DNA of 63,906 bases, filler included, from an uncultured bacterium (GCA_964637655.1; 3 parts of 3 records of this genome joined end to end with filler, not necessarily neighbours in it); one strand, 5' to 3'; shown: positions 10,648-54,921, counted from the first letter of the whole stretch. Notes: generated by a model not told the origin, from the letters alone. Numbers and translations are program-made.

Positions 10648-10718
10648 TAACTGGCGGATGAAAAACATCCGAGATAATTATGGCCGCTGATGCGGCAAGT
10701 TACGACACAAGGAACAAA

Positions 10719-17959: not shown

Positions 17960-17975
17960 ATACTGGAGATATGAA

Positions 17976-26900: not shown

Positions 26901-28042
26901 CTGGAGAACGGGACGCTGAATGGCGGCTATGTCGAGATCGAGAATGCCGGCAGCGAGCCGGTAATGCTGACGGACCTGCGCCTTGGTGTGGGGACGGCCG
27001 ACAACGAGTCACTGGGCATCTATGGCGACGCAGGAATGCCGGTAGGGCCGCTGGCCCCGGGTTCCCGGGCACTGTGCCACGCCGCGCGTCCCGACATCCT
27101 CTCCGAAAACGAGGCGACGGGCGACCTGAACGGTAACGGTGTGCTGGACGTGAGCTATGAGGATTGGCTCGACCTGAACGTACAGCAGACGCTGATGCTG
27201 GTCTGGCAGGGCGCGATCGTAGACGCCGTGCCGATGATTGGCGCAGGCGAGCAGAACGCCGCAGAGCAGCAGGCAGACCTGATGCGGACGCTGACCTCGC
27301 AGGGATATTGGCAGGGAAGCCGTCTGGCTGCCGGGAACACGCGGCTGGGGCGCACGGCGCTGTCGCGGCTGGAGGGGACGGAAGGGAATCAGGCGGTCGA
27401 CTGGCTGCTGACTCGCCCGACCCCGGGCGCGGCGAACAGCGCCTTACCGGTTCCGGCTGCCGGGCAGGTGCTGATCAACGAACTGGCACTTGATCCGTCC
27501 GCGCCGTGGGTGGAGATTCTGGGGATCGTTGGCGAGTGTGATGCCGGCGCGCTTTGGCTGACCGATTACGACGGCGAGGAGATCGGGCCGCTGACGGCAT
27601 CGCCGCAGGCGCTGACAGCGGGCGGGCGGCTGGTTGCCGCGCTGCCTGTCGACCGGCTGGAGAACGCGGACGGGCTGGTGGCGATTTCGGGTTGGCAGGC
27701 ACTGGACGCAGTGGTGTGGCAGATGCCCGGAATCAGTATCAGCTATGACGAGTTGGAAGATTATCGGACCATTTGTGATGCGGGACAGTGGCTGGGCGAA
27801 CTTGTGGAAAAGTCGCAGGACGCTATGCTGCTGGGACGCATACCGGACGGACAGGAGAGCAACAGCGCGGCTGACTGGCGAGTCGTTCTGCCGACGCCGG
27901 GCGCGGTAAACGCCCGCGACGAGCAGGGCCCGCAGGTGACGGTGAGCGTAACCCCGGCGCAGTTCGAGCCGCTGGGAACACAAGGTGAGACGTATTGCGT
28001 GATCACGGTCACGGTGCAGGATCCGACCGATGCGCAGACGCG
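17976..28042 (+). CDS. Giant secreted protein (>3300 aa, truncated by contig end): N-terminal putative amidase domain, coiled coil, Ig/FlgD-like, NHL-like, FN3, several LTDs
   Basis: Signal peptide, then YDRVAAASYA...GDCANFVSQCLIAG...H (Amidase_6/NlpC-P60-like); WNGRN..G..V.DG.Y FlgD-like; PPGTPTGVSA FN3; ITE../INE..PTPG LTDs. Confidence 0.85.
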
Positions 28043-28142
28043 NNNNNNNNNNNNNNNNNNNNNNNNNNNNNNNNNNNNNNNNNNNNTTAATTAATTAANN
28101 NNNNNNNNNNNNNNNNNNNNNNNNNNNNNNNNNNNNNNNNNN
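28043..28142. other. Artificial contig linker
   Basis: 44 N + TTAATTAATTAA (stops in six frames) + 44 N. Confidence 0.98.
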
Positions 28143-29170
28143 CGCGTCAATGGCTGCGCCGCATAGGTTGCCACTGCTGCCGGTTCCGCCGGCACGAGCG
28201 GATTGGCCCGGAACCCTAAACTGTCAAAAGCGACGCGCAACCCGAAACGGTGGGTATTGCCCAAATCACCGCGCGGCACAAAAGCATAGTCAAGCGTAAA
28301 GCCCGCGTACTGGAACGCCCCTCCGACACTCATGGCGTCCATGCCATGAAAGTCGGTTCCCGCCTCGTAGCCGGTGCGCAGCGCAAAGTAGTCGGTAACC
28401 TGATACTCAATGCCGCCGCTGACATAGGCCGTGGCATCGTTCGGGAAACTGATGTCGGCGGCCAGCAGCAGGGCCGGTGTCCAGTGATACGCCACGCCCC
28501 CCTTGAGCACCATGGGCAGTTTCGCCGCCTGCCTGACGAACGTTATCGGCGGCCCGAGATTCAGCGCCGCCAGCCCGAAACTCCATTGTCGGGTTGGACG
28601 ATACAGCAGCCCCAGGTCAACTGCCCAGCCGCGGGCCGTGGCATCCGCCAGGCGCTCGTCGAGGTAGCGCCCGGTAATGCCCAGCGCCACCTGCGGGTAT
28701 ACCGCCCAGGCCGCACTCAGGCCGACAGCGATATCCTGATTGCTGAAGGAGTTCAGGTCGGACAGTTCCGTGCGATAGTTGTCCGTAACCTGGGCCGCGA
28801 TGACGTCAGCCCCGAACGTATACTGCGGGCCGTACGGGATGGCCAGCGCAACATACTGGTGGGTGATGCCGCCAAACTCACTCAGATGCTGCGCGGCCGC
28901 CTGGAACGAAGTCAGTTGCGCCAGACCGGCCGGATTCCACCGCGCGGCATACACGTCGTCAGCGATGCCCACGTAGGTGCCGCCCAGCGCCGCCGCCCGC
29001 GCCCCCGCCCCGAGTTTCAAAAACGCCGCACCGGAAGTACCGTCAGCCCCGGCCAGGGCGACCGTACTGGACAGCAGCACCAGTGCTGCCACTATTCCCG
29101 GCAACGCGCGCAGCCACCTGCCCGCTTCGCGATACGGCCATTGCCGGGTGCAGCATTCCTGATGTGTCAT
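28143..29170 (-). CDS. PorV/PorQ (UPF0164)-family outer-membrane beta-barrel, 3' end truncated
   Basis: GAAFLKLGAGARAAALG...WNPAGLA...DYAFVP.GDLGNTHRF. Confidence 0.9.
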
Positions 29171-29180
29171 CTGCCTTCTC

Positions 29181-30644
29181 CTATCGGATCATGGTCAGTT
29201 TGCGGACCACCGTGCCGGCCGCTGATTGCACGACATACACGTAGGTGCCGCTCGCCACCATTTCTCCGGACTCGCTGCGCCCGTCCCAGCGCGCCACATT
29301 CTCCGGCGCAGTAACCGTGATTTCCTCACCCGCGCGCAGGGTGCGCAGCAATTGCGCGGCGATGTTGTAGATGGCGATGACCATGCCCGGATCGGACGGC
29401 AGCTGGTGGATGGTGACGTCCCCGTCGCGGTCGGGATAGTACGGGTTCGGCCAGCTGCGCACGCGCTCGAGATCGGCAACCGCAAGCGCCAGCCAGGTCG
29501 CCTGCACCGCTATCGCCGGCACGGTGTCGGCCCCGTCCGGATCATAGGTCACCGTGAGCAGGCCGCCATTGCCCACCCGGATGGCATCGCTCTGTGACAG
29601 CCCCTGCGTAAATCCGACCGTGCCCGTAAAACAGCCCGTGGTCAGCCCGGTCTCCGTCAGGAGCACCGTGATGCCGGTCGCATCGGCAGTCGAAGTGACA
29701 CGCACCCTGACGGTGTTGATCACGCCCGGCGGCGTATCCTGCACTGCGTCCGTCACCGTAATGCGCATCGGCCCGGCCAGTCCATGGTAGACCGCCTGAT
29801 CGAGAATCAGGTGGTAGTCGACAACCATGATCGCCACCGTATCAGTAATCCCGGCGTCGCTGATGCCGAGGTGCACGGTATCGAAACAGTCGCTGAGGGT
29901 CAGCACGCCATGCCACACCCCGTGGCTCCACCCCGCCGCCGCCAGCATGCCCGGCGCCACGCTGCCGGTATCGACCTGCAGCGTCGCTGCCGTGACGTAG
30001 GCATCGATGGGGTTGCTGTCGCTGTCGTAAGCGGTGACCGTAATGGAGAACGCCACCCCGGCATACACTGCCGGCGGCGCGCCGATGCCGAACGTTGCCA
30101 GCAGCGGCGCCGCAGCCAGCACGAAGTGATGCAGTTGCTGTCCCGCCCGCCTGATGGTGGCGGTGGCGGAATCACACGCCGTGGCAGTGGCGGTGGAAAC
30201 CGCGCCAACCGAGACGGTGTCAGTAACCACGCCGCCACCGCCCGGAATCCACACCGCCACCCTGAACCGCAGCACCTGATCCGCCGCCAGCTGCTGTACT
30301 GCCGGCAACGGCGCACTGCCAATGCTGTCGTACAGTTGCGTGTGCCAGTTCAGCCGCGAAACCGCCGCCAGCGTCACCGTGTCAGGCAGACCGGATTCGT
30401 TGGTGGTGCTGAACGGCAGCCATACCGTGTCGCCGGCAGTGGCGATCAGCCAGGTATCGCCGGCAACCGCCAGCCAGTTGCCCATGACCATGTCGCACTG
30501 CGCCGTCACGACAGACGCACTGGTTTGTCGGGTCAGGGTGCACGAATTGGTGATGAGCGTGCCCACCGGCGTCATGGCTGCGGCGGCGCCCGACCAGGCC
30601 AGCACGAGGCAGACCACCAGCATGCCGGGCAGGACACGCGTCAT
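29181..30644 (-). CDS. Secreted Ig-like protein with N-terminal GTLITN strand and C-terminal FlgD/T9SS-type CTD
   Basis: Signal peptide, then MTPVGTLITNSCTL; C-terminus WPNPY...IYNIAAQLLRTL...WDGR...VASGTYVY...RKLTMIR. Confidence 0.85.
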   Translation of the reverse strand: MTRVLPGMLVVCLVLAWSGAAAAMTPVGTLITNSCTLTRQTSASVVTAQCDMVMGNWLAVAGDTWLIATAGDTVWLPFSTTNESGLPDTVTLAAVSRLNWHTQLYDSIGSAPLPAVQQLAADQVLRFRVAVWIPGGGGVVTDTVSVGAVSTATATACDSATATIRRAGQQLHHFVLAAAPLLATFGIGAPPAVYAGVAFSITVTAYDSDSNPIDAYVTAATLQVDTGSVAPGMLAAAGWSHGVWHGVLTLSDCFDTVHLGISDAGITDTVAIMVVDYHLILDQAVYHGLAGPMRITVTDAVQDTPPGVINTVRVRVTSTADATGITVLLTETGLTTGCFTGTVGFTQGLSQSDAIRVGNGGLLTVTYDPDGADTVPAIAVQATWLALAVADLERVRSWPNPYYPDRDGDVTIHQLPSDPGMVIAIYNIAAQLLRTLRAGEEITVTAPENVARWDGRSESGEMVASGTYVYVVQSAAGTVVRKLTMIR

Positions 30645-30720
30645 ACACCGCGCCCCGCTACGCCACACAAGGTGCCCCGGCAGACCGGATCAGGCGCATG
30701 ACAGCGTCGTTCCTGTCTGC

Positions 30721-31728
30721 TTAGCGAATCATCACGCGCACGTAATTCGCGCCGGCATTGGCCGCGGCTACACTCGCGTTGATAAAACGCACCCAGCGTA
30801 CTGCCGCCAGGCCCGCCGGCACGCCGCTCGTCCAGCCCGCCGCGCCATAACTGAAGTCACCCTGTTCCGCGCCCGCCCATTGCGCCAGCCATCCGGCCGC
30901 CGTGTCATAGCCGAGGAATTTGAGGTTGACCGTATCGATGCAATCGTAGATGACAATGTTCACGCCCGCACCTGACCCGATGTTCACATACGCGAGCTGA
31001 TAGGTGATCGTCGCGCCCGGTTTCAGCCCTGACGGCAGTCCGTCCTTCGTGCAGGTGCCCGTCTTGTTCAGGGTGAAGATCGCGCCGGCGATGGTGACAA
31101 CGTCGACCGACCCGGTATTGGAGCCGCTGCTGGCCAATGCTTCCGCATACGAACAGCTGTTGTCATCGGCGCTGTAGGCGGGCGTTACCGCGAAGTTGCG
31201 CCCGATGGTAAAGAACACGCTCACCGAGTCGCCGTCATCCGTGGTGCCGCCGGCGGCAGCGGGAATGGTCACCTGCACATGGAACTGCGCCGTGCCGTCT
31301 TCGCTGATCGGGCCGACGATGACGCTGTCAGCCGGATCCCAGACCGACGTCATGCTGCTGTGGGTGTCGGGGCCGCTCCACACCGTCACGATAAACCCGG
31401 AGTCAGTGCCGTGATAGACGATAACCGGCATGACCCAGACACTGTCCGTGGCATTGCCGGTATTGTAGACGTCATAGGTAAAGGTCGCGGTTTCACCGAA
31501 ATTGCCGCTGAACGCTTCCACCGGCTTGCCCAGCGTATCGCCGTAAATCGTCTCGACGGCGGAGCCGGTCGCATGGGCGATCACCGCGGTAATCGACACC
31601 GCCGCAATCGTACAACTGTTGGTAATCATCGTGCCCGACGGAACATCGGACAGTTCGGCACGCGCCGCGGACGGCAGTAACAATGCCGCCACCATAACCA
31701 GCATCAGCCATGTAGTGTTTCGTGTCAT
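30721..31728 (-). CDS. Secreted DUF11-type protein (candidate fibre subunit)
   Basis: SD AAGGAG, signal peptide ending ARA, N-terminal PSGTMITNSCTI, C-terminal TLNKT..PGATITY...N.G...NIVIYD...VRVMIR. Confidence 0.85.
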   Translation of the reverse strand: MTRNTTWLMLVMVAALLLPSAARAELSDVPSGTMITNSCTIAAVSITAVIAHATGSAVETIYGDTLGKPVEAFSGNFGETATFTYDVYNTGNATDSVWVMPVIVYHGTDSGFIVTVWSGPDTHSSMTSVWDPADSVIVGPISEDGTAQFHVQVTIPAAAGGTTDDGDSVSVFFTIGRNFAVTPAYSADDNSCSYAEALASSGSNTGSVDVVTIAGAIFTLNKTGTCTKDGLPSGLKPGATITYQLAYVNIGSGAGVNIVIYDCIDTVNLKFLGYDTAAGWLAQWAGAEQGDFSYGAAGWTSGVPAGLAAVRWVRFINASVAAANAGANYVRVMIR

Positions 31729-31892
31729 GGTGCTTTTCTCCTTGCTGCAAAATCGGCACTACCAAGTTATGCCGTACTGCTGCATCCTGCTGCCCTGCTG
31801 CCTGACCGGCACGTGCCAGCCAGACGCTGCTGTTGCTGCGCCAGTTCCTCCCTCTGCACGACGGCACACACGTCGATTATTTTCACGTTACC

Positions 31893-31956
31893 ATTGTACC
31901 CGCAGCGGGAGGATGCAACCATTGGTAAGATGCACTTTTATCTGCCGATAATCCGC
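31893..31956 (-). promoter_or_regulatory. Conserved regulon promoter, copy 1 (DUF11 subunit gene)
   Basis: GCGGATTATCGGCAGATAAAAGTGCATCTTACCAATGG-N20-TACAAT. Confidence 0.7.
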
Positions 31957-32033
31957 ATCGGGCGGCACTGCCCGGCGAGCGGGGGGGAGAGAGAGCGGGG
32001 GCGGCTGCCGCACGGCATGCCCGATGACCCCGG

Positions 32034-33287
32034 TTACTCTGCGCCGAACACTTTCATTTCCGCGAGTGTGACAAAGCGCCACTCGGGATGCTTCACATAC
32101 ATGCGGTCGCCCTGCATCACCATGACCTTGACATACCGGCAGAGCGATCCCGCCACTGGCGTACTGACGGTCAGGATCGGGTCACCCCGCTGTGAATAAC
32201 TGGCAACTCCGCCTGCCGCATTGAGCTGCCAGGCAAGCAGTTCCCACTGTTCGCCGTCGCTGCTGCCCAGCAGGCGGAATGATTCCGGATAGGCGAGTTT
32301 CCGCCACACCGTAACCACCCGCCACACCGGCACGGCACGGCCCAGGTCGACGGTCGCCCATTGCGCGGCGGCATTGACTTCGCCGGAATTGATCATCCCG
32401 GTAAAAAAGCCGTCGTCACCGTCAGTGATGTTCGCCAGCGGATCGCTGTCGCGCTGCACCTCCGGTTCGTTATGATATTCGGTGAAAGTGCCGGTCACCG
32501 GCCGGTGCAGGGCGAGATTATTTTCCGGCATGGTCACCCGCTGCTCGCCCGAATTGACGGTATACCCGCTGCTGTCACTGCTCTGGATGAGGTAGCGGTA
32601 TTCCGTTGCGGGACACAATCCGGCACACTGCACGGCATGGGTGCGCTGTACTGCGGTTCCGTCATATTCCGTCAGCCAGACCGTATCACCCGCCCGTTTC
32701 AGCCCGAGGTGATAATCTGCCGGCAGATTGGTGGTCCAGGCCACGGTCAGGGTGTGCGGGTCCACCCGCGTCGCCTTGAGCTGTTCATAGCGCAATGACG
32801 GCAGGCCCGCGGTAACAAAGGTGCCCGTCACCGCATCGTGCGCGACAATGGCATACTGGTACACCGTGCCGCGCAGCAGATTGCGCAACTGCTGGTGATG
32901 CTGCGTGACGGGAGTGAAATTCATGAGCGGGGTCATCGGCCGGTCGAGCGGACCATACAGGATCTCGTCGGTGACCGGGACATCTGTTGTCCAGGTCAGC
33001 AGTGCCGCCTGCTCGCCCAGCACGGTAACGGTTGCGTTCGTGACGTGCCCGCGGCGCGCCCCGGACGACGCGGTTACCGGGGTCAGCAGCCAGTCCAGCG
33101 CACGCGTGTCAGCCGCCTGGGCGGCTGCTGGTGAGGGCAACAGCAGCACCACCAGCGCCAGTCCCAGCATGCCCAGCATCAGCCCCACGCGCAGCAGCGC
33201 ACTGCGGTTGGGCCCTGATGCCCGGCAGTAACTGCGCGCCCACGCGGCCGGGACATGGTGCCGCCGGCTATCTGATAAGCGTCTCAA
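32034..33287 (-). CDS. Exported protein with two FN3-like domains and a discoidin (F5/8 type C) domain
   Basis: Two WTT..P...H..L..L...T.Y.Y units; NLALHRPV...ITDGD...WATVDLG...RYVKV...AEMKVFG; start uncertain. Confidence 0.85.
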   Translation of the reverse strand: MRRLSDSRRHHVPAAWARSYCRASGPNRSALLRVGLMLGMLGLALVVLLLPSPAAAQAADTRALDWLLTPVTASSGARRGHVTNATVTVLGEQAALLTWTTDVPVTDEILYGPLDRPMTPLMNFTPVTQHHQQLRNLLRGTVYQYAIVAHDAVTGTFVTAGLPSLRYEQLKATRVDPHTLTVAWTTNLPADYHLGLKRAGDTVWLTEYDGTAVQRTHAVQCAGLCPATEYRYLIQSSDSSGYTVNSGEQRVTMPENNLALHRPVTGTFTEYHNEPEVQRDSDPLANITDGDDGFFTGMINSGEVNAAAQWATVDLGRAVPVWRVVTVWRKLAYPESFRLLGSSDGEQWELLAWQLNAAGGVASYSQRGDPILTVSTPVAGSLCRYVKVMVMQGDRMYVKHPEWRFVTLAEMKVFGAE

Positions 33288-36200
33288 GTTTCACCTCGAC
33301 GCTGCTGCCGGTGGACTGCCCGCCCGTGATGGTCCAGCGGACATTCGTCACCGGCGCCGCCTGCGAGCTGTCCCACGACACGCCCGAATCATGCGAATAA
33401 TCGATGACGGCCTGATAGCCGCGTGCCGCGACCGTGTCCGCGGTACCGGGCAGGTATTTCAGGTCGCTGGTGATGGCGTCGCTGATGACCACATTCTGCG
33501 CCGGCCCGAACCCGTTATTGTGCGCGCCAATCCGCCAGGCCACGCGCGCGCCCGGCCGCGGCAGGATCGGCATGCCGCCCAGCGACACGGTATCCTGGTA
33601 TTTGTAGGGCAGCAGCATGGGTGCCGTGGCGGTAGCGGAAGCCAGCGATTCGTTGCCGTAAGTATCGACACAGGTCACATGGAACACATACGTCTCGCCC
33701 AGGGTGACAGCCACCGCGCGATAGCCCGTCGTATCGGTCAACGGCATCAGTGTCAGGCGCTGCGCGAAGCCATTACCGTCGGTGTCGACATACACATGGT
33801 AGCCGAGCGTATCGCCCGGCACGCTGTTCCACACCAGCCATACGCCCGTGTCGGGCACTGCCGTGTCGGCAGTTGCGGTCAAGCCCGTCGGGGCCTCTGG
33901 CGCGAGGTTATCGATCCCGAAACAGGCGGTGGTGTCGCCGGTACCGGTATCGAGCGCGTCACAAACACTCGCCCGCAGCAGGATTCTGCTGCTCATCCCG
34001 CTGTAATCAGTCCCGGTCTGCCAAATCACTGCATGGGTCTCTCCCGTCGCTGACGAGCTGATCCCGGCCAGATTCCCGACGATGGTCGGACTCAGCCAGG
34101 TAACACCGGAATCAGTCGAGTAAGTGAACCAGACCGTGCAGGCGTCGGCAGTGCTGTCGGCAACAACGAAGGTGCAGGTGACGTTGCCGGTGTAGGTCTC
34201 GCCGGCGACCGGTGCCCGGATGTCGAGCAGCGGGCCCACGTTGCTGAGGTAGTTGACGGCAATGCCCGCCTCCCCGTAGCGGGCATAACGGTCGTAGACA
34301 TACGCGATGACCGCATCGTTTCCCGTAAGGGCAACCGTACCGCTCCACGTCCCGTTCGCCGCCGCCAGCACGATGCAGGTCTCCGCGCTATCCGTGCTGT
34401 TGACGTAAAGGAATACCGTGTCACCCGCCGTAGTCACCGCGGTCGTGCCCGTGACCGTAACAACCATGATGTTGGTGTCGTGATTGGTGGCGGGGAAAGT
34501 GATGCCGATGGTCGGCCATGGTGTCAATTCGATGTATTCGCCATAGGTGATGGTGTCGCCATTGCCGGAATTGTCCGTTGCCGTAAACTGCACGGTCAGG
34601 GTCTCGCCGCCATGGTCAAACCAGACCGCGGAGGTGTCGCAGGTGTAGGTGGTGCCGCCCGCAGGGGTCATGGCCAGCCAGGCGCCGAAAATCCCGGTAC
34701 TCTCCCAGGCGTAGCGGATCTTCGGGTATCCGGCCGCCAGACCGCTCAGGGTGTCAGACACGCTGACCGTAACCGTCAGCGGTATTGGTCCGCTGGTATC
34801 GCAGATATCGGTGCGCGAGATGCCATAGAGCAGCGGCGGGGTGATGTCGAACATGGCGGCCGCAGTTTCGGAAGGCAGCGATTCGTTGCCAACCGCATCG
34901 ATGCAGGTCACATAGAATACATAGGTGCAGCTGAGCGTCAGGAAAGATTCTTCCACAAAGTATTCCGTGGTGTCGGTTACCGGCGAAGACGTCAGCCGCT
35001 GCGCGAAACCGTTCCCGTCGGTATCGACATACACATGGTAGCCGAGCGTATCGCCGCCAACGCTGTTCCAGGCCAGCCAGATGCCGATATCGGGATCGGC
35101 AACCATATCTGCGGTCGCGCTGAGTCCGGTGGGCGACGCCGGGGGCTGCTGGTCGATGCCGATGGCCCCGGTGGTGTCCGCCGCCCCGGTATCCCGCCCA
35201 TCATAGGCGAACATCCGCACCAGGATCTGACAACTGGTCGTGTCGGGCAGGTCGGTGCCCGATGCCCAGACAATGGCATAGGTCTCGCCGTCAGCGTCTG
35301 CCGCCACCCCGTTGACACTGCCGGAACTGATGGTGGCGTCCTGCCACGTCACTCCGTTGTCCGCCGAATACTGGACCGTCACGGTGCAGGCATTATTGTC
35401 AATGTCATAGATGCAGTAGGTGATGGTGACGTTGCCCGTGTAGGTTTCGCCGTCGACCGGCACCATGATGACGATGGGCGGCGCCAGATTGGGAATGTAG
35501 ATTACCGTGATACTGTCGTACCGGGTGCGCCCGTAGCGGTCAAGCAGTTGCGCGGTTACGATGACCGTGCTGTCATACCCGCTGAGGGCGGCGGTTCCGC
35601 TCCAGTCGCCGTTCGCCGCCGCAATGACGATGACGGTTTCGGCGCTGGCGTTGCTGTTGATGAAGAGGTACACTGTATCCCCGGCGGCAGTGGCGAAGGT
35701 CGTGCCGGTAACGCGGATGACCCCGACGATGGTATCGTGAGTATCGGCCGGGAAGAGTATATTCACCTGGAGCGGGGGCGAGGTATCGATATATTCAGCG
35801 TAGGTTATGGTATCGAAATTATTCGCCTGATCCAGCAGCAGCACCTGCCAATTGAGGGTTTCGCCGGAATGTTCATCCCACACTTCGGGGATGGCATACG
35901 CATACGAGTCGCCGGCGACCAGTTCCATGTTCTGCCAATTGCCGTACATGCCCGTACTGCTCCAGGCATAGCGAATTTTCGGATAGAAGGCCACCAGTCC
36001 GGACACCGTATCAGTAACCTGAATGGCAACCGTCAGCGGGGTCTCGCCGCTGGTGTCCGAAATATTGCTGTGGACTTCGTCATGTATGGCTGGCGGCGTA
36101 TAATCAAATATCACCGTTGCGGTTTCCGTGACCCCGCGCGGATACGTGACGGAAACAGTGGAGGTGCCATTGCCGCTGTTGCCTTGGGCATAGCCGATGG

Positions 36201-39200
36201 CGATGCCGTTTTCATCCGTCACCCCGATTGGCTGGCTGCAGCCGTGCTGACTGTTGGCGTTGGTGATTGCCACCCGGTGGCCCGGCTGGGTATCGCCGGA
36301 GTTCAACAACAGGGTTACGGTGATGGCCACGCTGTCGGCATTACTGAAGATGGTTGCCGCCCTGACGGTTGAGGCGTAGAGGGCGCTCTGGTTGGGCAAA
36401 CCGGGACTGCCCTTGCCCGTTTCCCCGTTCATCGGGAAAATCGAGTCGCCGTTGGCCCAGCAGACCGCCGCCCGCGCACTGCGATCAATCCATATTCGTT
36501 CCATCGCCACCTGGTAGCCGCCGATATTACCACCCGCGTACCAGATGCCGGTGTAGGGGGCGTCAACAATCTCATTGACCGTGCGTGAGTCATAGTAGGC
36601 AATAAACGAGTCGCCGGGCGGGGCGTCGAAAAGATCCATGGCACCATTGAGGTAGTCGGCCGGCGCCGGGGTGGCCAGTTCCGCATCCTCGATGAGGAGG
36701 TAGCGATGCGGCCCGATGACTTTCCCGGCCAGGGCGGCGTTGCTGGCGATGGTATTCACGCCGTCCTTGTCGCCGAAATGAAAGGAGGAATCGGTGAATG
36801 ACAACGTGTCCATGGTGGGGTTGTAGATTTCCACATATTCGTTGACAAAGCCGCTCCACCCCACTTCGCTGATGACGGGAAAGCCAAGCCGCGTGGTGTC
36901 GTAGTATTTATACGGACCGGTGGGAGTTGACTGGTCGTTGACGGTTACCGTGTGCGTGCAGGTATTGTAACTGCCCACCTTGAAGACAACCGCCGCCTTG
37001 CCGTTGCTGTCAGTGTAGCCGGTGATACTGGTGAGGGTGCTGCCCGCCAGGTAGCGATAGCCGGCTGCTTCCAGCAGGTAAGAATCCGAGCCGTCGCCGG
37101 TGATGGCGAAATTCACCTTGGTGCCGTACACTGAATCGCTGCCCGACTTGGATATTGCCGTCAGCAGATAGGTTGCCCCGACGAAATTGCGCGGGTTGAT
37201 GGCGGGGATAAATGTGACGCTATTGACGTTGACGGTGGTAAGCTGCGGCGAGGCGGTTTTCAGGTTTACTGTGCTGACTCCGTCGTTATCGCTCTTGACG
37301 ACGAACGTATCGGTGCCTGTCGTCGCGCGCGCCACCGCCAGCGCCCCCCAGTTGACGCCGCCACCGGTATGGCCGTAGATGACATTGATCTCGCCCGTGG
37401 TGGCCAGCAGTGCGGTGACGGGCACCTGAATGGTCTGACCGGCAATGCTGACAGCCCCGAGCGTGCCATCGATGGCTGAAACGCCGATATAGCCGGGATT
37501 GGTGGCGACGGTGTTCTGCGGTGCGGTCCACCCCGTCGGGATGACAAAGTCAACCCGACCGTTGGCAAAAGAGTCGGTACCCGCCCGATAGGTGATGGTC
37601 CACTCGCCACGGCCGCTTTTGGCTACCCGGTTGGTCGGGCTGATTGAGCCGTAGCCGTCGAAGCTTGGTTCCGGCGCCGACCGCGAGTTCTGCGGGTCGC
37701 GTCCGGCGGTCTTGACGAAGTCGTTATAGTTGTTGTTGGAATCGAAGCCGTTGCCCGCAAACCGGTCGGCGCCGGTCAACATCGACTCGGCCGTTGCAAA
37801 GGCATTGGCCTTGCGCACCATCGAGGCCGCTTCACGGTCGACCGGGATATCCGCAAACGCATCTACCTCCGGGTAGGCGGCGCTCCCCCAGCCGAACAGG
37901 TCAGCGATCCCCGCAGTGGCGCCGGTATCGATGGCCACGTGGCCGCCGGTGGCAAGCATATTGTCGCCGTCCCAGGTGGCGTCGGCCGGGACCAACCCGG
38001 TATAATCATTTACATCGGCAATCAGATAATACCCCCGCCCCTGGATGACGGCGGTCACGCCTAAGGTGGTCAGCAGAATCCCCGCACTGCTCCGCAGATT
38101 GGTTGTGGCATTGCCATAGCGCAGTCGCCAGCCGCTGATACTGACGCTGCAGCTCAGGGTGTTGTACAGTTCGATGAACTCGTCTTTGCTTTGGCCGGTG
38201 TAGGAATGGCCCACCTCGCTGATCTTGATCGCCGTCATCGGGATCAGAACGCTGAACGCCGGTGCGTTCGCCACTGCGGCCGGAATATACTTGTCCTGAG
38301 CGGTCTTGATGGTAACCGACTGGATGCAGTTGGCGACGTGCTTCCCGGTCCCGCCGTCGAAATTCAGCCAGTTGATCGTGACCAGACCGGTTTCGCTGCT
38401 GGTGATCATGCTCCCGTAAATCGTTACGATGTAGGAATCGGCGGCACTGCCCGAACCGGTAAGCGTAACCATCTGGCTGCCAGTGAAACCGGGCCCGGAG
38501 CAGGTCACATTTGCCACGGCGGCGGCCCAGCTCATAAGCGCTGGAATGGTGATGGAGATGGTGTCCATTACCGGCCAGATGGATGAGCCCTGCATAACTA
38601 TGCCGACCGTTTGCTGACTGTCGCCCGCATGGGCGAAGGCGCCGGCAGGTTGGATAATCACAGCCGTACCGAACCCGCTTTGCGGGGTAATTGAAATTAC
38701 GGCGGTCCCGGTCATCGCCGACGCCAGCGGAATGACATTGGCATTCGCCGCCTTCGGCGTGCCCAGCCGGTCGAGTCCGATATCGCTCCAATGCGCGGCC
38801 AAACTGTCGCCGCGATTGGGGAGTGATACCCGCTCGAACAGGTGGTTGTCAGTCCAGGCCGCGGTGGCGGGGACTTTATTGAATCTATCCGCCACTTTGC
38901 TGCCGTCGTAAAGGCCCACCGCATCCAGGCCACCGTCAAGTTTCATATTGTTTTCGTCAAAATCACAGGCGAAACCGTAGGTCGCGTCAAAGTCGCCGGG
39001 CTTCCGCGCTATGATGAGGTAAGCCCCCGGCACGAGACTGCCGGCAAGATTTTGCGTTGCGGTCGGGGCGCCGGCGCCATTATCGTAGTAGTACAACTTA
39101 TACCCGGTGAGGTTTTGCGTTACAGCACTCTGGTTGTAGAGTTCGACATACGAGGCATTGGCAGCAGTGCAGGAATTTACTTCCGCGATAATGACCGGAG

Positions 39201-40986
39201 TGTCGGGGTGATACGTCACACGGATGACATTGCTGTCGCCGACGGTGTTGATGGTAAAGGTCTGATTGAGCACCCCGGCCGTGAATCTGTTTGATTGCGC
39301 GGGCGCGATGGTGCCGCTATCGACAGACAGGTCCACGGTCGCGGTGAAATCGGTATAGACCGCGCCGAGCAGGTCGCGCGCGGTGATGGTCAGGGTAAAC
39401 GCGCCGTTGACCGGCGTATCGCTTGGCACGGACACCGAGAACGAGGCGACGCGGCTCTGGTAGGTGAACTGGTTGCTGCTCACCGCCGCGTCCATATCGT
39501 TGATATCCGGATCGAGCGTAAAACAGGGGTCGGGGAGGGTCAGAATCAGCGTTTCGTTGTGGGCGGCGCCGGCGGTAGGGGTGACCACTATGAAGAAGCG
39601 CTGGCCGCCGGGCGGAATGGCGATTTCCAGGTTGCCGCCGTTATCCTCCCACCGTGAACTCCCGCCGTTCCACGTCAGGGGATATGACCCGGCAGCATCG
39701 CTGGTATGCGGGTCGAAATTGCCGTTATCGTCCATATCCTGCCAGAGCGCGAGCGTGTAATCGGTTGCGGGGGTCAGGGTCCCGGCATGGGTTAGCCGTA
39801 CATCATTGAGCGTATACGTGCAGCCGCCGTTATCAGGAATGGTAAAAGCCATGATCAGGTTGTTGCTGGAGTTGTAGCGGATGTAGCCCGCCGCCTGCTT
39901 GACTATATTCAGTTCCGCAGTCGATATTCTGGTGTTGATTGTTTTCAGATTGGCGTTGGTTTGCGTTGCCGAGAGGTAGGGAGTCCATGTGTCATCAGCG
40001 GTGGTGCCCGGGTCATAATCGATTTTGAAGCCGCTGTCGCTGCGCAGTTCGATTTTGAAGGTCTGGCCGTCGGTCAATACCGCGGTATCCGCCAGTCCGG
40101 CGGTGATGACGAAGTTCCACGGGGCGAATGCCGTCTGGTCCCAGGTCGCGCCCGTCATCCGGTAGCATTGCCGCGCGGCATCCCACGGTATCGTGCCGAC
40201 CGATACGTCGCCGGCGCTCCATGTGCTGTCGCAGTCCACATCACGCCACAGGGCGAGATAGGGCACGTCGCTATGGTCGGCGGTACCGGCGGCCTTATTG
40301 ATAACCACGCCGATGAGGCGCGGGCCGGTATCGAGCCGTCCGGCATACAGGGTGTTGCTGTCGCTGGTCCCGTGCCGCAGCGGGCCGCTATCGACATTGG
40401 TCATATACAGTTTGGCGCGCGGATACTGGCACGCATGGGTGCCCGGGGTGGCCGGCGCGGCGCTGCTGTAATCGAGCGTGGTCAGGGTCCAATTGCCGGC
40501 GATATAGACGGTGGTGTCGTCTCCGACCCACGCCTTTCTGACGATAGCGCTGTCGGAGAATTTCACCCCCAGGCACTGGTCCACGGTGACGGCGGCGCTG
40601 TTCACCAGTCGCGCCCCGTCGTTGGTGCCGCCATCCCACTTGGTCCAGGCGGAAGCAGTGGGAAAAGCATGGGTGGTGAAGGTGCAGGTGGTGCTGCCGG
40701 CGGTCAGCGCCTCGCCCGGCTGGATGGTGCCTGACAAATTGAAGGTGATATATGAAGTATTGCCATCGCCAATCGCGTACAACTTCCACCCGGTCAGATC
40801 CACCGGGCAGGATCCGGTATTGTATATTTCGATATAGCGGTCGCTGGTGATGTTGAATTTGGGATCGCACATTTCCGCAATAATGACGTCAGCAGCGGCG
40901 GGCGCGGAGAACCACAGGCACACCATCACCACCAGCAATACCACGAGACCGGGCCATGCTCTCTTCACCTTTCGCTGGTTGTTCAC
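33268..40986 (-). CDS. Giant secreted adhesin-like protein (~2570 aa): four LTDs, Ig-like/FN3 repeats, C-terminal DUF11-type domain
   Basis: GTG start with SD GAAGGGGAAGG; signal peptide; IIAE/ISE..Y(I/V)E(I/L)YN LTDs; C-terminal PYKY...RPGARVAWRI...NNG...NVVISDAI...KLETLIR. Confidence 0.88.
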   Translation of the reverse strand: MNNQRKVKRAWPGLVVLLVVMVCLWFSAPAAADVIIAEMCDPKFNITSDRYIEIYNTGSCPVDLTGWKLYAIGDGNTSYITFNLSGTIQPGEALTAGSTTCTFTTHAFPTASAWTKWDGGTNDGARLVNSAAVTVDQCLGVKFSDSAIVRKAWVGDDTTVYIAGNWTLTTLDYSSAAPATPGTHACQYPRAKLYMTNVDSGPLRHGTSDSNTLYAGRLDTGPRLIGVVINKAAGTADHSDVPYLALWRDVDCDSTWSAGDVSVGTIPWDAARQCYRMTGATWDQTAFAPWNFVITAGLADTAVLTDGQTFKIELRSDSGFKIDYDPGTTADDTWTPYLSATQTNANLKTINTRISTAELNIVKQAAGYIRYNSSNNLIMAFTIPDNGGCTYTLNDVRLTHAGTLTPATDYTLALWQDMDDNGNFDPHTSDAAGSYPLTWNGGSSRWEDNGGNLEIAIPPGGQRFFIVVTPTAGAAHNETLILTLPDPCFTLDPDINDMDAAVSSNQFTYQSRVASFSVSVPSDTPVNGAFTLTITARDLLGAVYTDFTATVDLSVDSGTIAPAQSNRFTAGVLNQTFTINTVGDSNVIRVTYHPDTPVIIAEVNSCTAANASYVELYNQSAVTQNLTGYKLYYYDNGAGAPTATQNLAGSLVPGAYLIIARKPGDFDATYGFACDFDENNMKLDGGLDAVGLYDGSKVADRFNKVPATAAWTDNHLFERVSLPNRGDSLAAHWSDIGLDRLGTPKAANANVIPLASAMTGTAVISITPQSGFGTAVIIQPAGAFAHAGDSQQTVGIVMQGSSIWPVMDTISITIPALMSWAAAVANVTCSGPGFTGSQMVTLTGSGSAADSYIVTIYGSMITSSETGLVTINWLNFDGGTGKHVANCIQSVTIKTAQDKYIPAAVANAPAFSVLIPMTAIKISEVGHSYTGQSKDEFIELYNTLSCSVSISGWRLRYGNATTNLRSSAGILLTTLGVTAVIQGRGYYLIADVNDYTGLVPADATWDGDNMLATGGHVAIDTGATAGIADLFGWGSAAYPEVDAFADIPVDREAASMVRKANAFATAESMLTGADRFAGNGFDSNNNYNDFVKTAGRDPQNSRSAPEPSFDGYGSISPTNRVAKSGRGEWTITYRAGTDSFANGRVDFVIPTGWTAPQNTVATNPGYIGVSAIDGTLGAVSIAGQTIQVPVTALLATTGEINVIYGHTGGGVNWGALAVARATTGTDTFVVKSDNDGVSTVNLKTASPQLTTVNVNSVTFIPAINPRNFVGATYLLTAISKSGSDSVYGTKVNFAITGDGSDSYLLEAAGYRYLAGSTLTSITGYTDSNGKAAVVFKVGSYNTCTHTVTVNDQSTPTGPYKYYDTTRLGFPVISEVGWSGFVNEYVEIYNPTMDTLSFTDSSFHFGDKDGVNTIASNAALAGKVIGPHRYLLIEDAELATPAPADYLNGAMDLFDAPPGDSFIAYYDSRTVNEIVDAPYTGIWYAGGNIGGYQVAMERIWIDRSARAAVCWANGDSIFPMNGETGKGSPGLPNQSALYASTVRAATIFSNADSVAITVTLLLNSGDTQPGHRVAITNANSQHGCSQPIGVTDENGIAIGYAQGNSGNGTSTVSVTYPRGVTETATVIFDYTPPAIHDEVHSNISDTSGETPLTVAIQVTDTVSGLVAFYPKIRYAWSSTGMYGNWQNMELVAGDSYAYAIPEVWDEHSGETLNWQVLLLDQANNFDTITYAEYIDTSPPLQVNILFPADTHDTIVGVIRVTGTTFATAAGDTVYLFINSNASAETVIVIAAANGDWSGTAALSGYDSTVIVTAQLLDRYGRTRYDSITVIYIPNLAPPIVIMVPVDGETYTGNVTITYCIYDIDNNACTVTVQYSADNGVTWQDATISSGSVNGVAADADGETYAIVWASGTDLPDTTSCQILVRMFAYDGRDTGAADTTGAIGIDQQPPASPTGLSATADMVADPDIGIWLAWNSVGGDTLGYHVYVDTDGNGFAQRLTSSPVTDTTEYFVEESFLTLSCTYVFYVTCIDAVGNESLPSETAAAMFDITPPLLYGISRTDICDTSGPIPLTVTVSVSDTLSGLAAGYPKIRYAWESTGIFGAWLAMTPAGGTTYTCDTSAVWFDHGGETLTVQFTATDNSGNGDTITYGEYIELTPWPTIGITFPATNHDTNIMVVTVTGTTAVTTAGDTVFLYVNSTDSAETCIVLAAANGTWSGTVALTGNDAVIAYVYDRYARYGEAGIAVNYLSNVGPLLDIRAPVAGETYTGNVTCTFVVADSTADACTVWFTYSTDSGVTWLSPTIVGNLAGISSSATGETHAVIWQTGTDYSGMSSRILLRASVCDALDTGTGDTTACFGIDNLAPEAPTGLTATADTAVPDTGVWLVWNSVPGDTLGYHVYVDTDGNGFAQRLTLMPLTDTTGYRAVAVTLGETYVFHVTCVDTYGNESLASATATAPMLLPYKYQDTVSLGGMPILPRPGARVAWRIGAHNNGFGPAQNVVISDAITSDLKYLPGTADTVAARGYQAVIDYSHDSGVSWDSSQAAPVTNVRWTITGGQSTGSSVEVKLETLIR

Positions 40987-41050
40987 GCCTTCCCCTTCAC
41001 CGGCAGTGTCGCGCACGCGTCAGCCGCACACCATGATCAACATACTCATA

Positions 41051-41114
41051 AGTATACCCGCCCGGGTACTATCCAACCATTGGCAATTTCCACTTTCGCC
41101 TGACTTTTATCCGC
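41051..41114 (-). promoter_or_regulatory. Conserved regulon promoter, copy 2 (giant adhesin operon)
   Basis: GCGGATAAAAGTCAGGCGAAAGTGGAAATTGCCAATGG-N20-TATACT. Confidence 0.85.
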
Positions 41115-41135
41115 TGTGGTGCGCCGGGCAGCCGG

Positions 41136-41588
41136 CTACGCGGCGCATGCTGCCGGCAGGGTGCTGACACTCGTGGCTGATTCCCCGCTTGCCGGCACCA
41201 GCTGGCGCCGGCGCCCCGCGCCCGAAGCGAGATGGCTCGCCACCTTGGCCAGCAGAATCGTGCTGACTAACGGCTTGATGATGTAGTCATTGCCGCCGCT
41301 CTGGTACGCCCTGGTGACATCGGCCGATGCCCCGTGGCGGGAGAGCATGATGACGGGGATTGCCCGGGTGTGGGGATTGGCCTTGAGCTGGCGGCACACC
41401 TCGTGTCCATCCACATCCGGCAGTTCGCTCGCGAGCAGGATGAGGTCCGGCCGGTTGGCCACTGCCTGCGCCATCCCGAACCTGCCTTCCACCGCTGCCG
41501 TCACTTCGTGGCCGGGCTGCTGGCGGAAAATCATTTTGACCTGGTTCCGCATCCGGTAATCATCGTCAATCATCAGAATCCTGACCAT
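41136..41588 (-). CDS. Stand-alone receiver domain, atypical (phosphoacceptor Asp replaced)
   Basis: ILMIDDD...PDLILLASELPDVDG...IPVIMLS...DYIIKP. Confidence 0.88.
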   Translation of the reverse strand: MVRILMIDDDYRMRNQVKMIFRQQPGHEVTAAVEGRFGMAQAVANRPDLILLASELPDVDGHEVCRQLKANPHTRAIPVIMLSRHGASADVTRAYQSGGNDYIIKPLVSTILLAKVASHLASGAGRRRQLVPASGESATSVSTLPAACAA

Positions 41589-41641
41589 GCGTTCCCTCGC
41601 CCGAATAGCAGTGGCGGTGCACACCTCTGCCACCTGTCACA

Positions 41642-42416: not shown

Positions 42417-43211
42417 TTATTGCCGGTACCGCTCGAGCAGCTGCCGGGCCGTCACGTTCTTCGGTTCGAGTTGGAGGCAGTACTCCCAGCACTGGATTGC
42501 CTGATCGCGATAGCCCTGATAATTGCGGCAGATGCCGAGGTACAGATAGGCCGGCGCACTGGTGGGCGTATGCCGCAGCAGGGTATCGTAGTAATATCCC
42601 GCATTGGCGTAATCGCCCAGTTGAAAATACGCCGCGCCGAGATTGTTCAGGCAACTGGTGTTGCCGGGTTCGAGCGTCACGGCCTGCAGATACCGCACCA
42701 CCGCGCCGGCATAGTCGCCGTTGGCGAACGCGCTGTTGCCGGTCATGAGCAGGTAGGCAACCGTCGGCGCGGGGGCCGGCACGGACGCGGGTGCAGCCAG
42801 TACGTCCATCGTCAATACGACCCGCCGGTTCAGCGCCCGCGCCTGCTCATCGACATTTTCGTAGCGCGGCTGCTCCTCGCCGAAACTTGACTCGATCAGC
42901 CGCTCCCGCGCAATCCCCTCTTCGTTCACCAGATACGCCATGGCCCGGTCGGCCCGCTGGCGTGCCAGCTGGTCGTTGTAGGCGTGCGACTCAAGGTCGC
43001 AGGTATGGCCGACCAGATACAGGTGCTGCTCAGGGTTGGCCCGAAGCATTTCCGCCACCCCGTGCAGCACCAGTTGGGAAACCGGCAGGAGTTCCGCCTG
43101 ATCGATGGTGAAATAGATGCGATGGACATCCTGCACATCCACGGCATACGCGTTCCCGCACAGCATCATCAGCACCGCGATACCCGCCAGTCCCGTCAGC
43201 ACATTTCTCAT
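42417..43211 (-). CDS. Exported OmpA-like peptidoglycan-binding domain + TPR protein
   Basis: IYF..D...GHTCD...N..LA..RA...FGEEQP...NRRV, then three TPRs. Confidence 0.9.
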   Translation of the reverse strand: MRNVLTGLAGIAVLMMLCGNAYAVDVQDVHRIYFTIDQAELLPVSQLVLHGVAEMLRANPEQHLYLVGHTCDLESHAYNDQLARQRADRAMAYLVNEEGIARERLIESSFGEEQPRYENVDEQARALNRRVVLTMDVLAAPASVPAPAPTVAYLLMTGNSAFANGDYAGAVVRYLQAVTLEPGNTSCLNNLGAAYFQLGDYANAGYYYDTLLRHTPTSAPAYLYLGICRNYQGYRDQAIQCWEYCLQLEPKNVTARQLLERYRQ

Positions 43212-54821: not shown

Positions 54822-54921
54822 NNNNNNNNNNNNNNNNNNNNNNNNNNNNNNNNNNNNNNNNNNNNTTAATTAATTAANNNNNNNNNNNNNNNNNNNNNNN
54901 NNNNNNNNNNNNNNNNNNNNN
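54822..54921. other. Artificial contig linker
   Basis: 44 N + TTAATTAATTAA + 44 N. Confidence 0.98.

Follow-up and report, generated by a model that had tools for sequence, protein, structure and literature searches.

A putative multi-chain surface adhesin joined through a split DUF11/CLIPPER domain in an operon of an uncultured bacterium

What do a giant tip-like protein, a short shaft-like protein and a protein with a sorting domain do side by side in one operon, when the first two end, and the last two begin, in what look like parts of one and the same Ig-like domain? The question is raised by a group of minus-strand genes (Table 1) in the window analyzed here, a stretch of 63,906 nucleotides, filler included, from an uncultured bacterium (GCA_964637655.1). 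The original prediction read these genes as a candidate new pilus, a fibre held together by strand donation and isopeptide bonds, with a giant adhesin at its tip and a base tethered to a PorV-like barrel. The domain family concerned, DUF11/CLIPPER (PF01345), is of the CnaA-like type, forms its isopeptide intramolecularly and occurs in the stalks of fibrillar adhesins, with K715/D748/N806 as the triad in 9IFR (PMC12617251; 9IFR). CnaA-like domains join their first and penultimate strands (PMC12617251), which corrects the assumption of a bond between the first and last ones. Judging from sequence, we consider it probable, if far from certain, that the operon encodes an adhesin whose separate chains are connected by a split DUF11/CLIPPER (CnaA-like) Ig domain and locked by isopeptide bonds, with a C-terminal sorting domain (CTD) and a PorV-family barrel serving export and/or anchorage.

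Table 1. Features of the putative split-domain adhesin operon, in coordinates of the window.
Feature	Position	Strand	Remarks
Giant LTD tip protein	33268..41016	(-)	2582 aa, secreted; Lamin-tail domains and FN3-like repeats
Tip acceptor, truncated DUF11/CLIPPER body, residues 2445-2582	33271..33684	(-)	ends ...ETLIR before the Asn strand
Accessory secreted protein, FN3/purple-acid-phosphatase-N-like and F5/8 type C (discoidin)	32034..33287	(-)	family matches
Putative shaft or adaptor: signal peptide, donor hairpin, Ig-like middle domain, truncated acceptor	30721..31728	(-)	335 aa
Shaft donor hairpin, residues 30-61	31546..31641	(-)	N37 (31618-31620) and C39
Shaft middle Ig-like (CARDB/PapD-like) domain, residues 62-216	31081..31545	(-)	AF2 model
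Shaft acceptor, truncated DUF11/CLIPPER body, residues 217-335	30724..31080	(-)	ends ...VRVMIR
Putative base or anchor: signal peptide, donor hairpin, Ig-like domains, T9SS type A-like CTD	29181..30668	(-)	495 aa
Base donor hairpin, residues 33-66	30471..30572	(-)	N41 (30546-30548)
Base C-terminal sorting domain, residues 398-495	29184..29477	(-)	T9SS type A / FlgD-Ig-like
PorV/PorQ-family outer-membrane beta-barrel	28091..29170	(-)	NF033709

The tip and the shaft end in the same kind of domain. An acceptor-domain HMM built without the shaft matched the shaft C-terminus (residues 210-335, E 8.9e-28) as well as that of the tip, and in both the first strand bears a Lys, followed about 33-41 residues on by an Asp of catalytic type: K222 (31063-31065) and D262 in IVIYD (30943-30945) in the shaft, which also has C226, and K2472 (33601-33603) and D2513 in VVISD (33478-33480) in the tip. 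Both domains stop at the protein C-terminus, lacking an Asn-bearing penultimate strand of their own. The family profiles match the window proteins below cut-off (PF01345, 14.4 bits for P0003 and 18.6 for P0005 against 24.6; TIGR01451, 19 and 20.6 bits against 24), and relatives with the same terminal domain pass PF01345, with 30.8 bits for P0061 (profile positions 6-83 of 114) and 51.1 bits for P0089. The putative donor is equally circumscribed: when the window is translated in six frames, the ten-residue motif GT[ML]ITNSCT[IL] occurs exactly twice, each time just past the signal peptide, in the adjacent shaft and base genes. The tip protein (LTD match E 2.3e-37, in three stretches) has no donor motif and a single acceptor-like domain, at its extreme C-terminus, and the acceptor HMM found no acceptor domain in the base, in any of ten base homologues, or in the PorV-like protein. 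The motif count and the HMM support complementary ends as originally described, with an acceptor-only tip, a shaft bearing donor and acceptor, and a donor-only base with a CTD near a PorV-family barrel; shaft N37 and K222, tip K2472 and base N41 also proved to lie where the original prediction had put them.

One part of that description needs amending, since the donor, taken to be a lone N-terminal strand, does carry the Asn but is a two-strand hairpin. In an AF2 model of the shaft computed with a 20-row alignment (mean pLDDT 83.5), the N-terminal strands span residues 34-43 and 46-57; after them come a middle domain that is complete and a C-terminal body modelled with confidence (pLDDT >92). 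The AF2 shaft models are monomers, given without coordinates, and do not distinguish docking in cis from docking in trans. Residues 61-216 of the model aligned (VIA-align) to generic Ig-like domains with Z of 8-9.

Conservation of the proposed bond-forming residues was followed among 169 related proteins searched with a terminal-domain HMM, 93 of which terminate no more than 5 residues from one and the same domain end; after all eight internal full-length copies, a G..L..N.A.V strand follows within about 10 residues. Of the 93 terminal domains, 87 keep the Lys, with Gln in 2 and a gap or fragment in 4, and 89 keep the Asp, with Val in 2, Glu in 1 and a gap in 1. The Gln pair and the Val pair belong to the same two shaft relatives, both of which retain the donor Asn. 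Family representatives are less than 50% identical, with Lys and Asp nearly invariant, and 86 of 89 scorable acceptor-only proteins retain both. The donor Asn is present in 18/20 members of the shaft family (Asp in the other two), in 7/9 of the base family (Ser in the other two) and in 6/6 base proteins of a second lineage; Ser replaces it in the base of locus L002. Because of the Asn to Ser changes in some bases and the loss of Lys and Asp in two shaft relatives, a covalent lock would not be universal. By a crude signal-peptide test, signal-peptide proteins of 329-361 aa with a truncated terminal domain have the donor in 15/15 cases, and among those of at least 645 aa about 17 of 20 are without it.

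Sequence comparison also supports the donor hairpin as a homologue of the strands absent from the truncated domain. In nine fused homologues, all ten internal hairpin-middle domain-body units come right after the last strand of a domain body. P0123 is a one-chain tandem (body-hairpin-middle-body-hairpin-middle-body), and P0063, P0106, P0115 and P0116 correspond to a tip fused to a shaft, still with an open body at the C-terminus. Since the hairpin of all ten internal units belongs to the upstream body, with no slack before the middle domain, hairpin and downstream body would lie at opposite poles of that middle domain.

At the other end of the operon, the window base (P0002) matches the T9SS type A sorting domain (TIGR04183 / PF18962) weakly (TIGR04183, 19.1 bits against a cut-off of 23), and 9/9 members of its family match at E<=0.01 (best 3.9e-06); the base of locus L001 matches FlgD_ig, CHU_C and Por_Secre_tail, each with less than 27 bits. 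Minus its hairpin, the base is the C-terminal module common to unsplit giant CTD adhesins: in genomes G001-G005, open frames of 1705-9673 aa match it from query residue 41-61 through to 551, and in these proteins FN3 repeats like those before the tip acceptor lead straight into the base-type module. The barrel predicted to follow the base is borne out at family level, with the full-length PorV/PorQ profile NF033709 passed at 151.6 bits (cut-off 90, E 3.7e-44) and the equivalog cut-offs of PorV (NF033710, 54.4 against 250 bits) and PorQ (NF033711, 85.2 against 220) not reached; the last 16 codons of its gene are masked as N (3' end, 28099-28142). The synteny put forward as a check was found, the gene order recurring in four genomes of another lineage (G001-G004): tip-(F5/8C)-shaft-base-PorV-like in L001/G001, L013/G002 and L014/G004, and the same genes in a variant order in L015/G003. 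Locus L002 shows it in part (F5/8C-shaft-base), and a PorV-like gene comes after the base gene in L001, L013, L014 and L015. This comparison covers loci from two lineages, not the neighbourhoods of the large low-GC group of terminal-domain proteins. The conserved F5/8 type C/FN3 gene between the tip and shaft genes had gone unmentioned, and its homologues occupy the equivalent place in L001, L002, L013 and L014. The promoter ascribed to the shaft gene was not found: a scan of the minus strand across 27900-41600 yielded no sigma-70-like site, and upstream of the gene there is only a 305-nt spacer with a good Shine-Dalgarno sequence.

The idea that such a fibre would dispense with machinery is not supported either. 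A T9SS-like apparatus is probably needed, as genomes with the same operon encode a SprA-like translocon and many CTD cargo proteins. The SprA-like matches, found in 5/5 second-lineage genomes, are partial (E 1e-21 to 1e-28, frames of 1390-2253 aa) and below cut-off, and the PorU catalytic domain had no match in these genomes, where the CTD part alone was matched. T9SS cargo is anchored to cognate barrels of the PorV/PorQ/PorP type. The base resembles such cargo in its type A-like CTD and in the PorV/PorQ-family barrel gene next to its own; the tip and shaft differ from it, with no CTD and no recognizable outer-membrane export signal.

We infer the following assembly. The tip and shaft each end in a body that holds the isopeptide Lys and the catalytic Asp and is short of its last two strands, and the mature shaft and base begin with the matching two-strand Asn hairpin. 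This hairpin would enter the open body of the preceding chain (that of the shaft entering the tip, that of the base the shaft, and perhaps that of one shaft another), rebuilding a complete domain, upon which a Lys-Asn isopeptide would lock the joint; the T9SS-type CTD of the base and the adjacent PorV/PorQ-family barrel would provide export and/or anchorage at the outer membrane. The joined product would share the topology of a fibrillar adhesin made as one chain, running from passenger and stalk to C-terminal anchor module and CTD. The shaft might polymerise into a long fibre or serve as a single adaptor. The shaft and base donors of the second lineage diverge more than those of the window, a difference that would be in keeping with a 1:1:1 chain and not with a polymer. 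If true, covalent end-to-end joining by a split Ig domain would be an assembly principle so far undescribed for DUF11/CLIPPER, and our literature search found no published description of this split-domain assembly. Its novelty is nonetheless limited, and a new pilus in principle was an overstatement, given that isopeptide-locked donor-strand exchange is already known from BsaA (10.1101/2024.11.04.621531) and archaeal threads (PMC9715654).

Comparison with these and other systems shows what the operon shares with each. The stalk domains of DUF11/CLIPPER proteins are of the same family, show Lys, Asp and Asn in the same order, the Lys lying on the first strand and the Asn on the penultimate one, and occur in long surface proteins with sorting domains (PMC12617251); here, unlike there, two polypeptides share the domain and the bond would be intermolecular, the survey apparently covering intramolecular bonds only (PMC12617251). 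In Clostridium perfringens BsaA, an N-terminal segment enters the sheet of the next subunit and an Asn-Lys isopeptide forms spontaneously, with an acidic catalyst and no sortase (10.1101/2024.11.04.621531), so that the N-terminal donor and sortase-free lock proposed here have a parallel there. BsaA differs in its TasA-like fold, N-E-K triad, SipW processing, secretion associated with type IV pilus genes and setting in a Gram-positive matrix fibre, and it lacks a CTD, a PorV and any tip or base whose ends are one-sided; in the window, no TasA-type family appears among the Pfam/NCBIfam matches, and the triad would be N-D-K in a DUF11-type domain. The archaeal thread (Saci_0406) combines donor-strand complementation with a proposed intersubunit isopeptide involving Asn, but in a homopolymer of unrelated fold, in which Asn57 of subunit n is linked to the N-terminal amine of subunit n+2 (PMC9715654). 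Logic and polarity are shared with chaperone-usher pili (type 1 and P pili), where the tip adhesin consists of an N-terminal binding part and an acceptor-only C-terminal pilin domain, and N-terminal extensions are donated (PMC11821415). These pili are, however, non-covalent, with a single donor strand, a periplasmic chaperone and usher, another pilin fold, and neither the Lys/Asp/Asn triad nor a CTD; a Pfam search of 25 ORFs of the window gave no chaperone or usher match. Bacteroidota type V pilins (FimA/Mfa1) are lipoprotein precursors that undergo protease-triggered C-terminal strand exchange. A pilus of this type does not fit the shaft, whose signal peptide ends in ...PSAARA without a lipobox cysteine at the cleavage site and whose donor is N-terminal. 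Sortase assembly does not fit either, with the tip ending in ...ETLIR, the shaft in ...VRVMIR and the base in ...KLTMIR, and no LPXTG or hydrophobic tail. SpyTag/SpyCatcher is reportedly an engineered split CnaB2 with a Lys-Asp bond, a Glu catalyst and a single strand split off; it, too, divides an isopeptide Ig-like domain between partners that ligate covalently and spontaneously, whereas the split here would be natural, in a CnaA-like domain and with a two-strand tag.

Must the hairpin act on another chain at all? It might instead fold onto the C-terminal body of its own shaft, making a circularly permuted CLIPPER domain with the middle domain inserted; the tip domain would then be degenerate, the base hairpin part of its own first domain, and the three products independent surface proteins of a T9SS-like system. 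We regard this as unlikely, even if CnaA/CnaB folds tolerate domain insertions (PMC12617251), the hairpin reaches a pLDDT of about 75 in the AF2 monomer with the deeper alignment, and C39 and C226, jointly invariant among the five closest shaft proteins, could form an intrachain disulfide. It leaves unexplained why acceptor-only proteins should retain Lys and Asp and why bases with no acceptor should keep hairpin and Asn; it also sits poorly with the hairpin of the internal units belonging to the upstream body, and AF2 with a shallow alignment left residues 16-70 of the shaft unplaced. Joining between chains could also dispense with the bond, as in chaperone-usher, TasA or cannulae-type filaments, Lys, Asp and Asn being merely structural. 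The bases with Ser for Asn and the two shaft relatives that keep the architecture after losing Lys and Asp point that way, as do BsaA oligomers, which are SDS-stable without the bond (10.1101/2024.11.04.621531). We nevertheless give this little credence, for Lys and Asp are nearly invariant at such low identity and lost only jointly, and experiments have established the isopeptide in the parent domain family, where Lys, Asp and Asn follow one another in the same order (PMC12617251).

Less probable still is that the truncated terminal domain is mainly a sorting signal, another type of CTD that the PorV-like barrel or a T9SS-like translocon would recognize, with the hairpin serving an unrelated role. 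Its homology is to DUF11 repeats within stalks, not to CTD families, and it would remain unexplained why Lys and Asp are conserved and why, in unsplit proteins, the hairpin adjoins the end of the body exactly. Such a signal would nonetheless suit its extreme C-terminal position in 93 proteins with very diverse passengers, its Ig-like sandwich, which T9SS CTDs share, its last strand, which like that of the base CTD closes with hydrophobic-x-hydrophobic and then a basic or polar residue, and the want of another export signal in tip and shaft. Under the split-domain assembly that we prefer, the domain could have a sorting role in addition to joining the chains.

The terminal domains of the window's giant tip protein and of its shaft both stop short of their closing strands, and strands equivalent to the missing ones stand at the N-termini of the shaft and of the base, so that the three proteins have complementary ends; this split domain is a real feature of the proteins, and from it a mode of assembly can be proposed in which separate chains would complete one another in trans. 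The genes concerned form, with two others, a head-to-tail arrangement of five on the minus strand (see the table). The Lys and Asn residues that the original prediction had assigned to the shaft (K222, N37), tip (K2472) and base (N41) are all correctly located, and the Asp partners that match them are D262 in the shaft and D2513 in the tip. Translated in six frames, the window contains the motif GT[ML]ITNSCT[IL] at two places only, each directly behind the signal peptide of the 335-aa or the 495-aa protein. The shaft had also been credited with its own promoter, of which a promoter/terminator scan, with site counts no higher than the shuffled expectation, found none on the minus strand upstream of that gene. 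The sequencing runs comprise four DNA runs of one wastewater study. The final 16 codons of the PorV-like gene are masked as N; the first of two pairs of 44-nt N runs (12 bases between the members of each) overlies the 3′ ends of this gene and of a convergent giant gene, and both C-termini are masked. The secreted protein between tip and shaft, with F5/8 type C (discoidin) and FN3/purple-acid-phosphatase-N-like regions, is conserved at this position in at least five loci and has neither donor nor acceptor.

Features of the window and of two related loci (L001, from a genome-contig scan; L002, from a metagenome scan)
Feature	Coordinates	Strand	Evidence or remark
Tip, 2582-aa secreted protein	33268-41016	-	three Lamin-tail-domain (LTD) stretches, E 2.3e-37
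FN3-like and F5/8 type C protein, 417 aa	32034-33287	-	
Shaft, 335 aa	30721-31728	-	
Base, 495 aa	29181-30668	-	
PorV/PorQ-family barrel, 359 aa	28091-29170	-	NF033709, 151.6 bits (cut-off 90)
Shaft C39 codon	31612-31614	-	donor Asn +2
Shaft C226 codon	31051-31053	-	acceptor Lys +4
First pair of N runs	28043-28086; 28099-28142		
Second pair of N runs	54822-54865; 54878-54921		
LTD-type surface proteins, two	14696-16372; 17940-28094	+	
Two response-regulator receiver proteins and an OmpA-TPR protein	41136-41633; 42417-43211; 44168-44953	-	directly upstream of tip
Low-GC island	10680-13684		GC 0.44 (vs ~0.62)
WG-repeat protein (7 repeats) adjoining GT4 glycosyltransferase	3844-4920; 4935-6062		
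PMT-like mannosyltransferase	381-1994		
F5/8C protein, L001	8220-9794		
F5/8C protein, L002	207-1355		
Further shaft-base-PorV-like set, L001	14554-19728		after the first set; no second tip

The C-terminal ~120 residues of tip and shaft are alike and similar to DUF11/CLIPPER repeats. According to PMC12617251, DUF11 belongs to the CnaA-like isopeptide domains, its triad in 9IFR being Lys715-Asp748-Asn806, and in CnaA-like domains the bond links the first strand with the penultimate one, for which reason the piece missing here amounts to two strands. The terminal domains of the window tip and shaft score under the Pfam and NCBIfam DUF11 cut-offs, and two terminal-domain relatives pass the DUF11 cut-off, P0061 with 30.8 bits over profile positions 6-83 of 114 only and P0089 with 51.1 bits. 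A shaft-family profile matched 473 proteins at E<=1e-3 among 1.84 billion representatives, the best 150 of the 473 being taken; of 169 proteins examined, 93 have their C-terminus no more than five residues from the common domain end defined by a terminal-domain HMM. These 93 range from fragments up to 2582 aa and bear differing passengers (beta-helix, TIG, DNRLRE, LTD), while in all eight internal copies that reach the HMM end a G..L..N.A.V strand follows within ~10 residues. Of the 93 terminal domains, 87 keep the Lys, two having Gln in its place and four, in fragments, a gap; 89 keep the Asp, against two with Val, one with Glu and one with a gap. The two proteins with Gln are also the two with Val, and each retains the Asn in its own N-terminal strand. 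That Lys and Asp are so strictly kept in a domain without an Asn strand of its own points to a partner that comes from elsewhere. The family appears in the sources only as “hypothetical protein [bacterium]” or “uncharacterized repeat protein (TIGR01451 family)”, and the nearest ESM Atlas clusters, which serve as leads only, consist of unnamed proteins about 370 aa long and have DUF11 on 18-24% of their members. Foldseek and VIA-align searches of the PDB led only to tandem Ig domains of a generic kind (integrin legs, antigen I/II, complement MG domains, PapD-like), 9IFR being absent among the matches listed; against PDB sequences, the tip C-domain profile reached only E ~0.3-0.4, to AbpX and 9IFR, and the protein P0033 had no match.

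The donor had been described as a lone N-terminal strand with an Asn; strand and Asn are there, yet the piece is a two-stranded hairpin, two strands being what the terminal domains lack, and the AF2 model of the shaft agrees. This model (20-row alignment, pLDDT 83.5), which was read without coordinates and does not tell cis from trans placement of the hairpin, has N-terminal strands at 34-43 and 46-57, a complete middle Ig domain at 62-216 and a confident C-terminal body at 218-334 (pLDDT above 92); with five sequences the pLDDT was 56.8 and the N-terminus was unplaced. By signal-peptide calls from a crude heuristic signature, the hairpin is present in 15 of 15 signal-peptide proteins of 329-361 aa that end in the truncated domain and absent from about 17 of the 20 in the long class (>=645 aa), where P0125 and P0064 show a strand resembling the donor and P0156 is a doubtful case; a regular-expression donor match in P0034 is spurious. 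The base family keeps the hairpin in nine aligned sequences, with Asn in seven and Ser in two; Asn stands in all six base donors from a second lineage, represented by five genomes (G001-G005), and Ser in that of L002. Neither the window base nor any of ten homologues has an acceptor domain at E<=1. The C-terminus of the family is a T9SS type A-like CTD, TIGR04183 matching nine of nine members at E<=0.01 and the window base itself with 19.1 bits against a cut-off of 23. Shaft residues C39 and C226 are both invariant in the five closest shaft proteins; a Cys also stands in the base donor, and none in the tip acceptor. An extra disulfide at shaft-shaft and shaft-base joints is possible, and a donor-acceptor Cys39/Cys226 pair was set aside, there being no co-variation beyond the closest relatives.

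Natural fusions of three kinds reveal the homology of the ends. In P0063, P0106, P0115 and P0116, a complete body is followed without interruption by hairpin, middle domain and a terminal truncated body, an architecture that, judged by sequence, equals a tip fused to a shaft with its end still open. Across ten internal hairpin-middle-body units in nine proteins, the strand at which terminal domains stop stands directly before the unit in every case. P0123 (716 aa) runs body-hairpin-middle-body-hairpin-middle-body in one chain and would be the covalently continuous, unsplit equivalent of a shaft polymer. Without its hairpin, the second-lineage base is what many giant CTD proteins of the same genomes ordinarily have as their C-terminal module: open frames of 1705-9673 aa match it from query residue 41-61 through to 551, and in these giants FN3 repeats resembling those before the tip acceptor pass straight into the base-like module. 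A search with the window base for longer relatives returned two matches at ~20% query coverage and thereby no unsplit relative of this base. Taken together, the unsplit relatives indicate that tip and base, with or without shaft, correspond to a single conventional giant adhesin divided into two chains, the break falling inside a CLIPPER domain.

The predicted order of tip, shaft, base and PorV recurs in three second-lineage genomes (G001, with the locus L001; G002; G004). L001, the one related locus from the genome-contig scan, belongs to an uncultured bacterium, is at 28% identity and repeats the gene order of the window: tip, F5/8C protein, shaft, base, PorV-like gene; the PorV-like protein of its further set carries a C-terminal TPR region, and G001 has three acceptor-bearing genes in all. 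Shaft and tip matches occur in four of the five genomes, G003 having the variant order tip end, base, PorV-like, shaft, base, PorV-like, and in G005 a base with its hairpin stands on its own, right where a contig begins. The short contig L002, the one yielded by the metagenome scan, holds F5/8C protein, shaft and the start of a base. As to the T9SS, all five genomes have many CTD proteins and a SprA-like open frame whose partial matches stay under the cut-off (E 1e-21 to 1e-28; frame lengths are 2100-2253 aa in four genomes and 1390 aa in G003), and PorU was matched through its CTD part only.

In the proposed assembly, the shaft hairpin would, after Sec export, complete the open body of the tip and the base hairpin that of the shaft, whereupon Lys and Asn would react with Asp as catalyst. 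The chain would terminate in the base CTD, which with the adjacent PorV/PorQ-family barrel would provide for export through a T9SS-like translocon and/or for anchorage; no known export signal was found in tip and shaft. We consider assembly in trans likely, and a covalent lock overall is favoured with less assurance; the Ser for Asn in two of nine base homologues and in the L002 base, the sub-threshold scores of the window proteins and the want of a known export signal in tip and shaft speak against the scheme. Docking of the hairpin in cis within the shaft appears unlikely, since the unsplit stalks leave no slack between hairpin and middle domain and would thus place the hairpin and the downstream body at opposite poles. 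A complex prediction in which the tip C-domain, base 32-190 and shaft 25-335 were combined, with the shaft as partner, scored 0.59 against 0.54 and 0.51 for controls, of which a base swap kept the shaft-tip pair, and weighs neither for nor against binding.

How far such a chain might extend is a separate matter. In the window, shaft and base donors differ so little that either should fit the shaft body, and this near-identity and the two L001 shaft-base sets per tip favour chains longer than three; against longer chains, the second-lineage shaft and base donors are more distinct. True polymerisation of the shaft into a fibre, as opposed to its use as a one-time adaptor, is a tentative proposal, to which we give somewhat less than even weight. 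More speculative still is a general role in covalent docking, in which the truncated CLIPPER body would be a “catcher” of wide natural occurrence, with the N-terminal hairpin as its “tag”, for modular, freely combined isopeptide-linked fibres free of sortase, chaperone and usher. In the periplasm, diverse CTD-less proteins (LTD adhesins, beta-helix, TIG/DNRLRE) would then become covalently attached to shaft subunits and a CTD-bearing base, and a T9SS-like translocon would export one covalent chain led by a CTD acting in trans.

That a spontaneous isopeptide can lock a donor-strand exchange has already been published, for BsaA of C. perfringens, with a bond N35-K74 and E56 (preprint, 10.1101/2024.11.04.621531), and for archaeal threads, in which the N-terminal amine is reported to bond to Asn57 (PMC9715654). 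The present system has the same tip-first, N-terminal-donor logic as chaperone-usher pili, and its split body and hairpin, if the chains join as we infer, would be a natural counterpart of SpyTag/SpyCatcher. What is new is that the fold is a CnaA-like CLIPPER domain, split by nature and with a tag of two strands, that tip and base are one-sided, that the system is linked, in a diderm, to a CTD of T9SS type and a barrel of the PorV family, and that the unannotated family is so broad; in searches of open-access article texts, neither a split DUF11/CLIPPER domain nor trans complementation nor a T9SS link was described. If the scheme is true, this would be the first natural CnaA/CLIPPER-type isopeptide Ig domain split between proteins as a covalent connector, here in bacteria with an outer membrane, and a further route to pili or adhesin stalks beside the chaperone-usher, type IV, type V, sortase and TasA-type ones. 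It would also account for T9SS-like display of giant adhesins that have no secretion tag, give a function to a large unannotated family (473 cluster representatives) and offer hairpin/body pairs as candidate orthogonal protein-ligation tools.

Elsewhere in the window, the plus strand encodes the two LTD-type surface proteins, one of them the 3384-aa giant P0170, convergent with the PorV-like gene; neither acceptor domain nor donor motif was found in either, and P0170 was rejected as the window's unsplit counterpart, its FN3/FlgD-Ig similarity being weak. The response regulators and OmpA-TPR protein are possible regulators or envelope partners. The low-GC island, with a C-5 cytosine DNA methylase and a HATPase_c_3-domain protein, was probably acquired as a module for restriction or defence.
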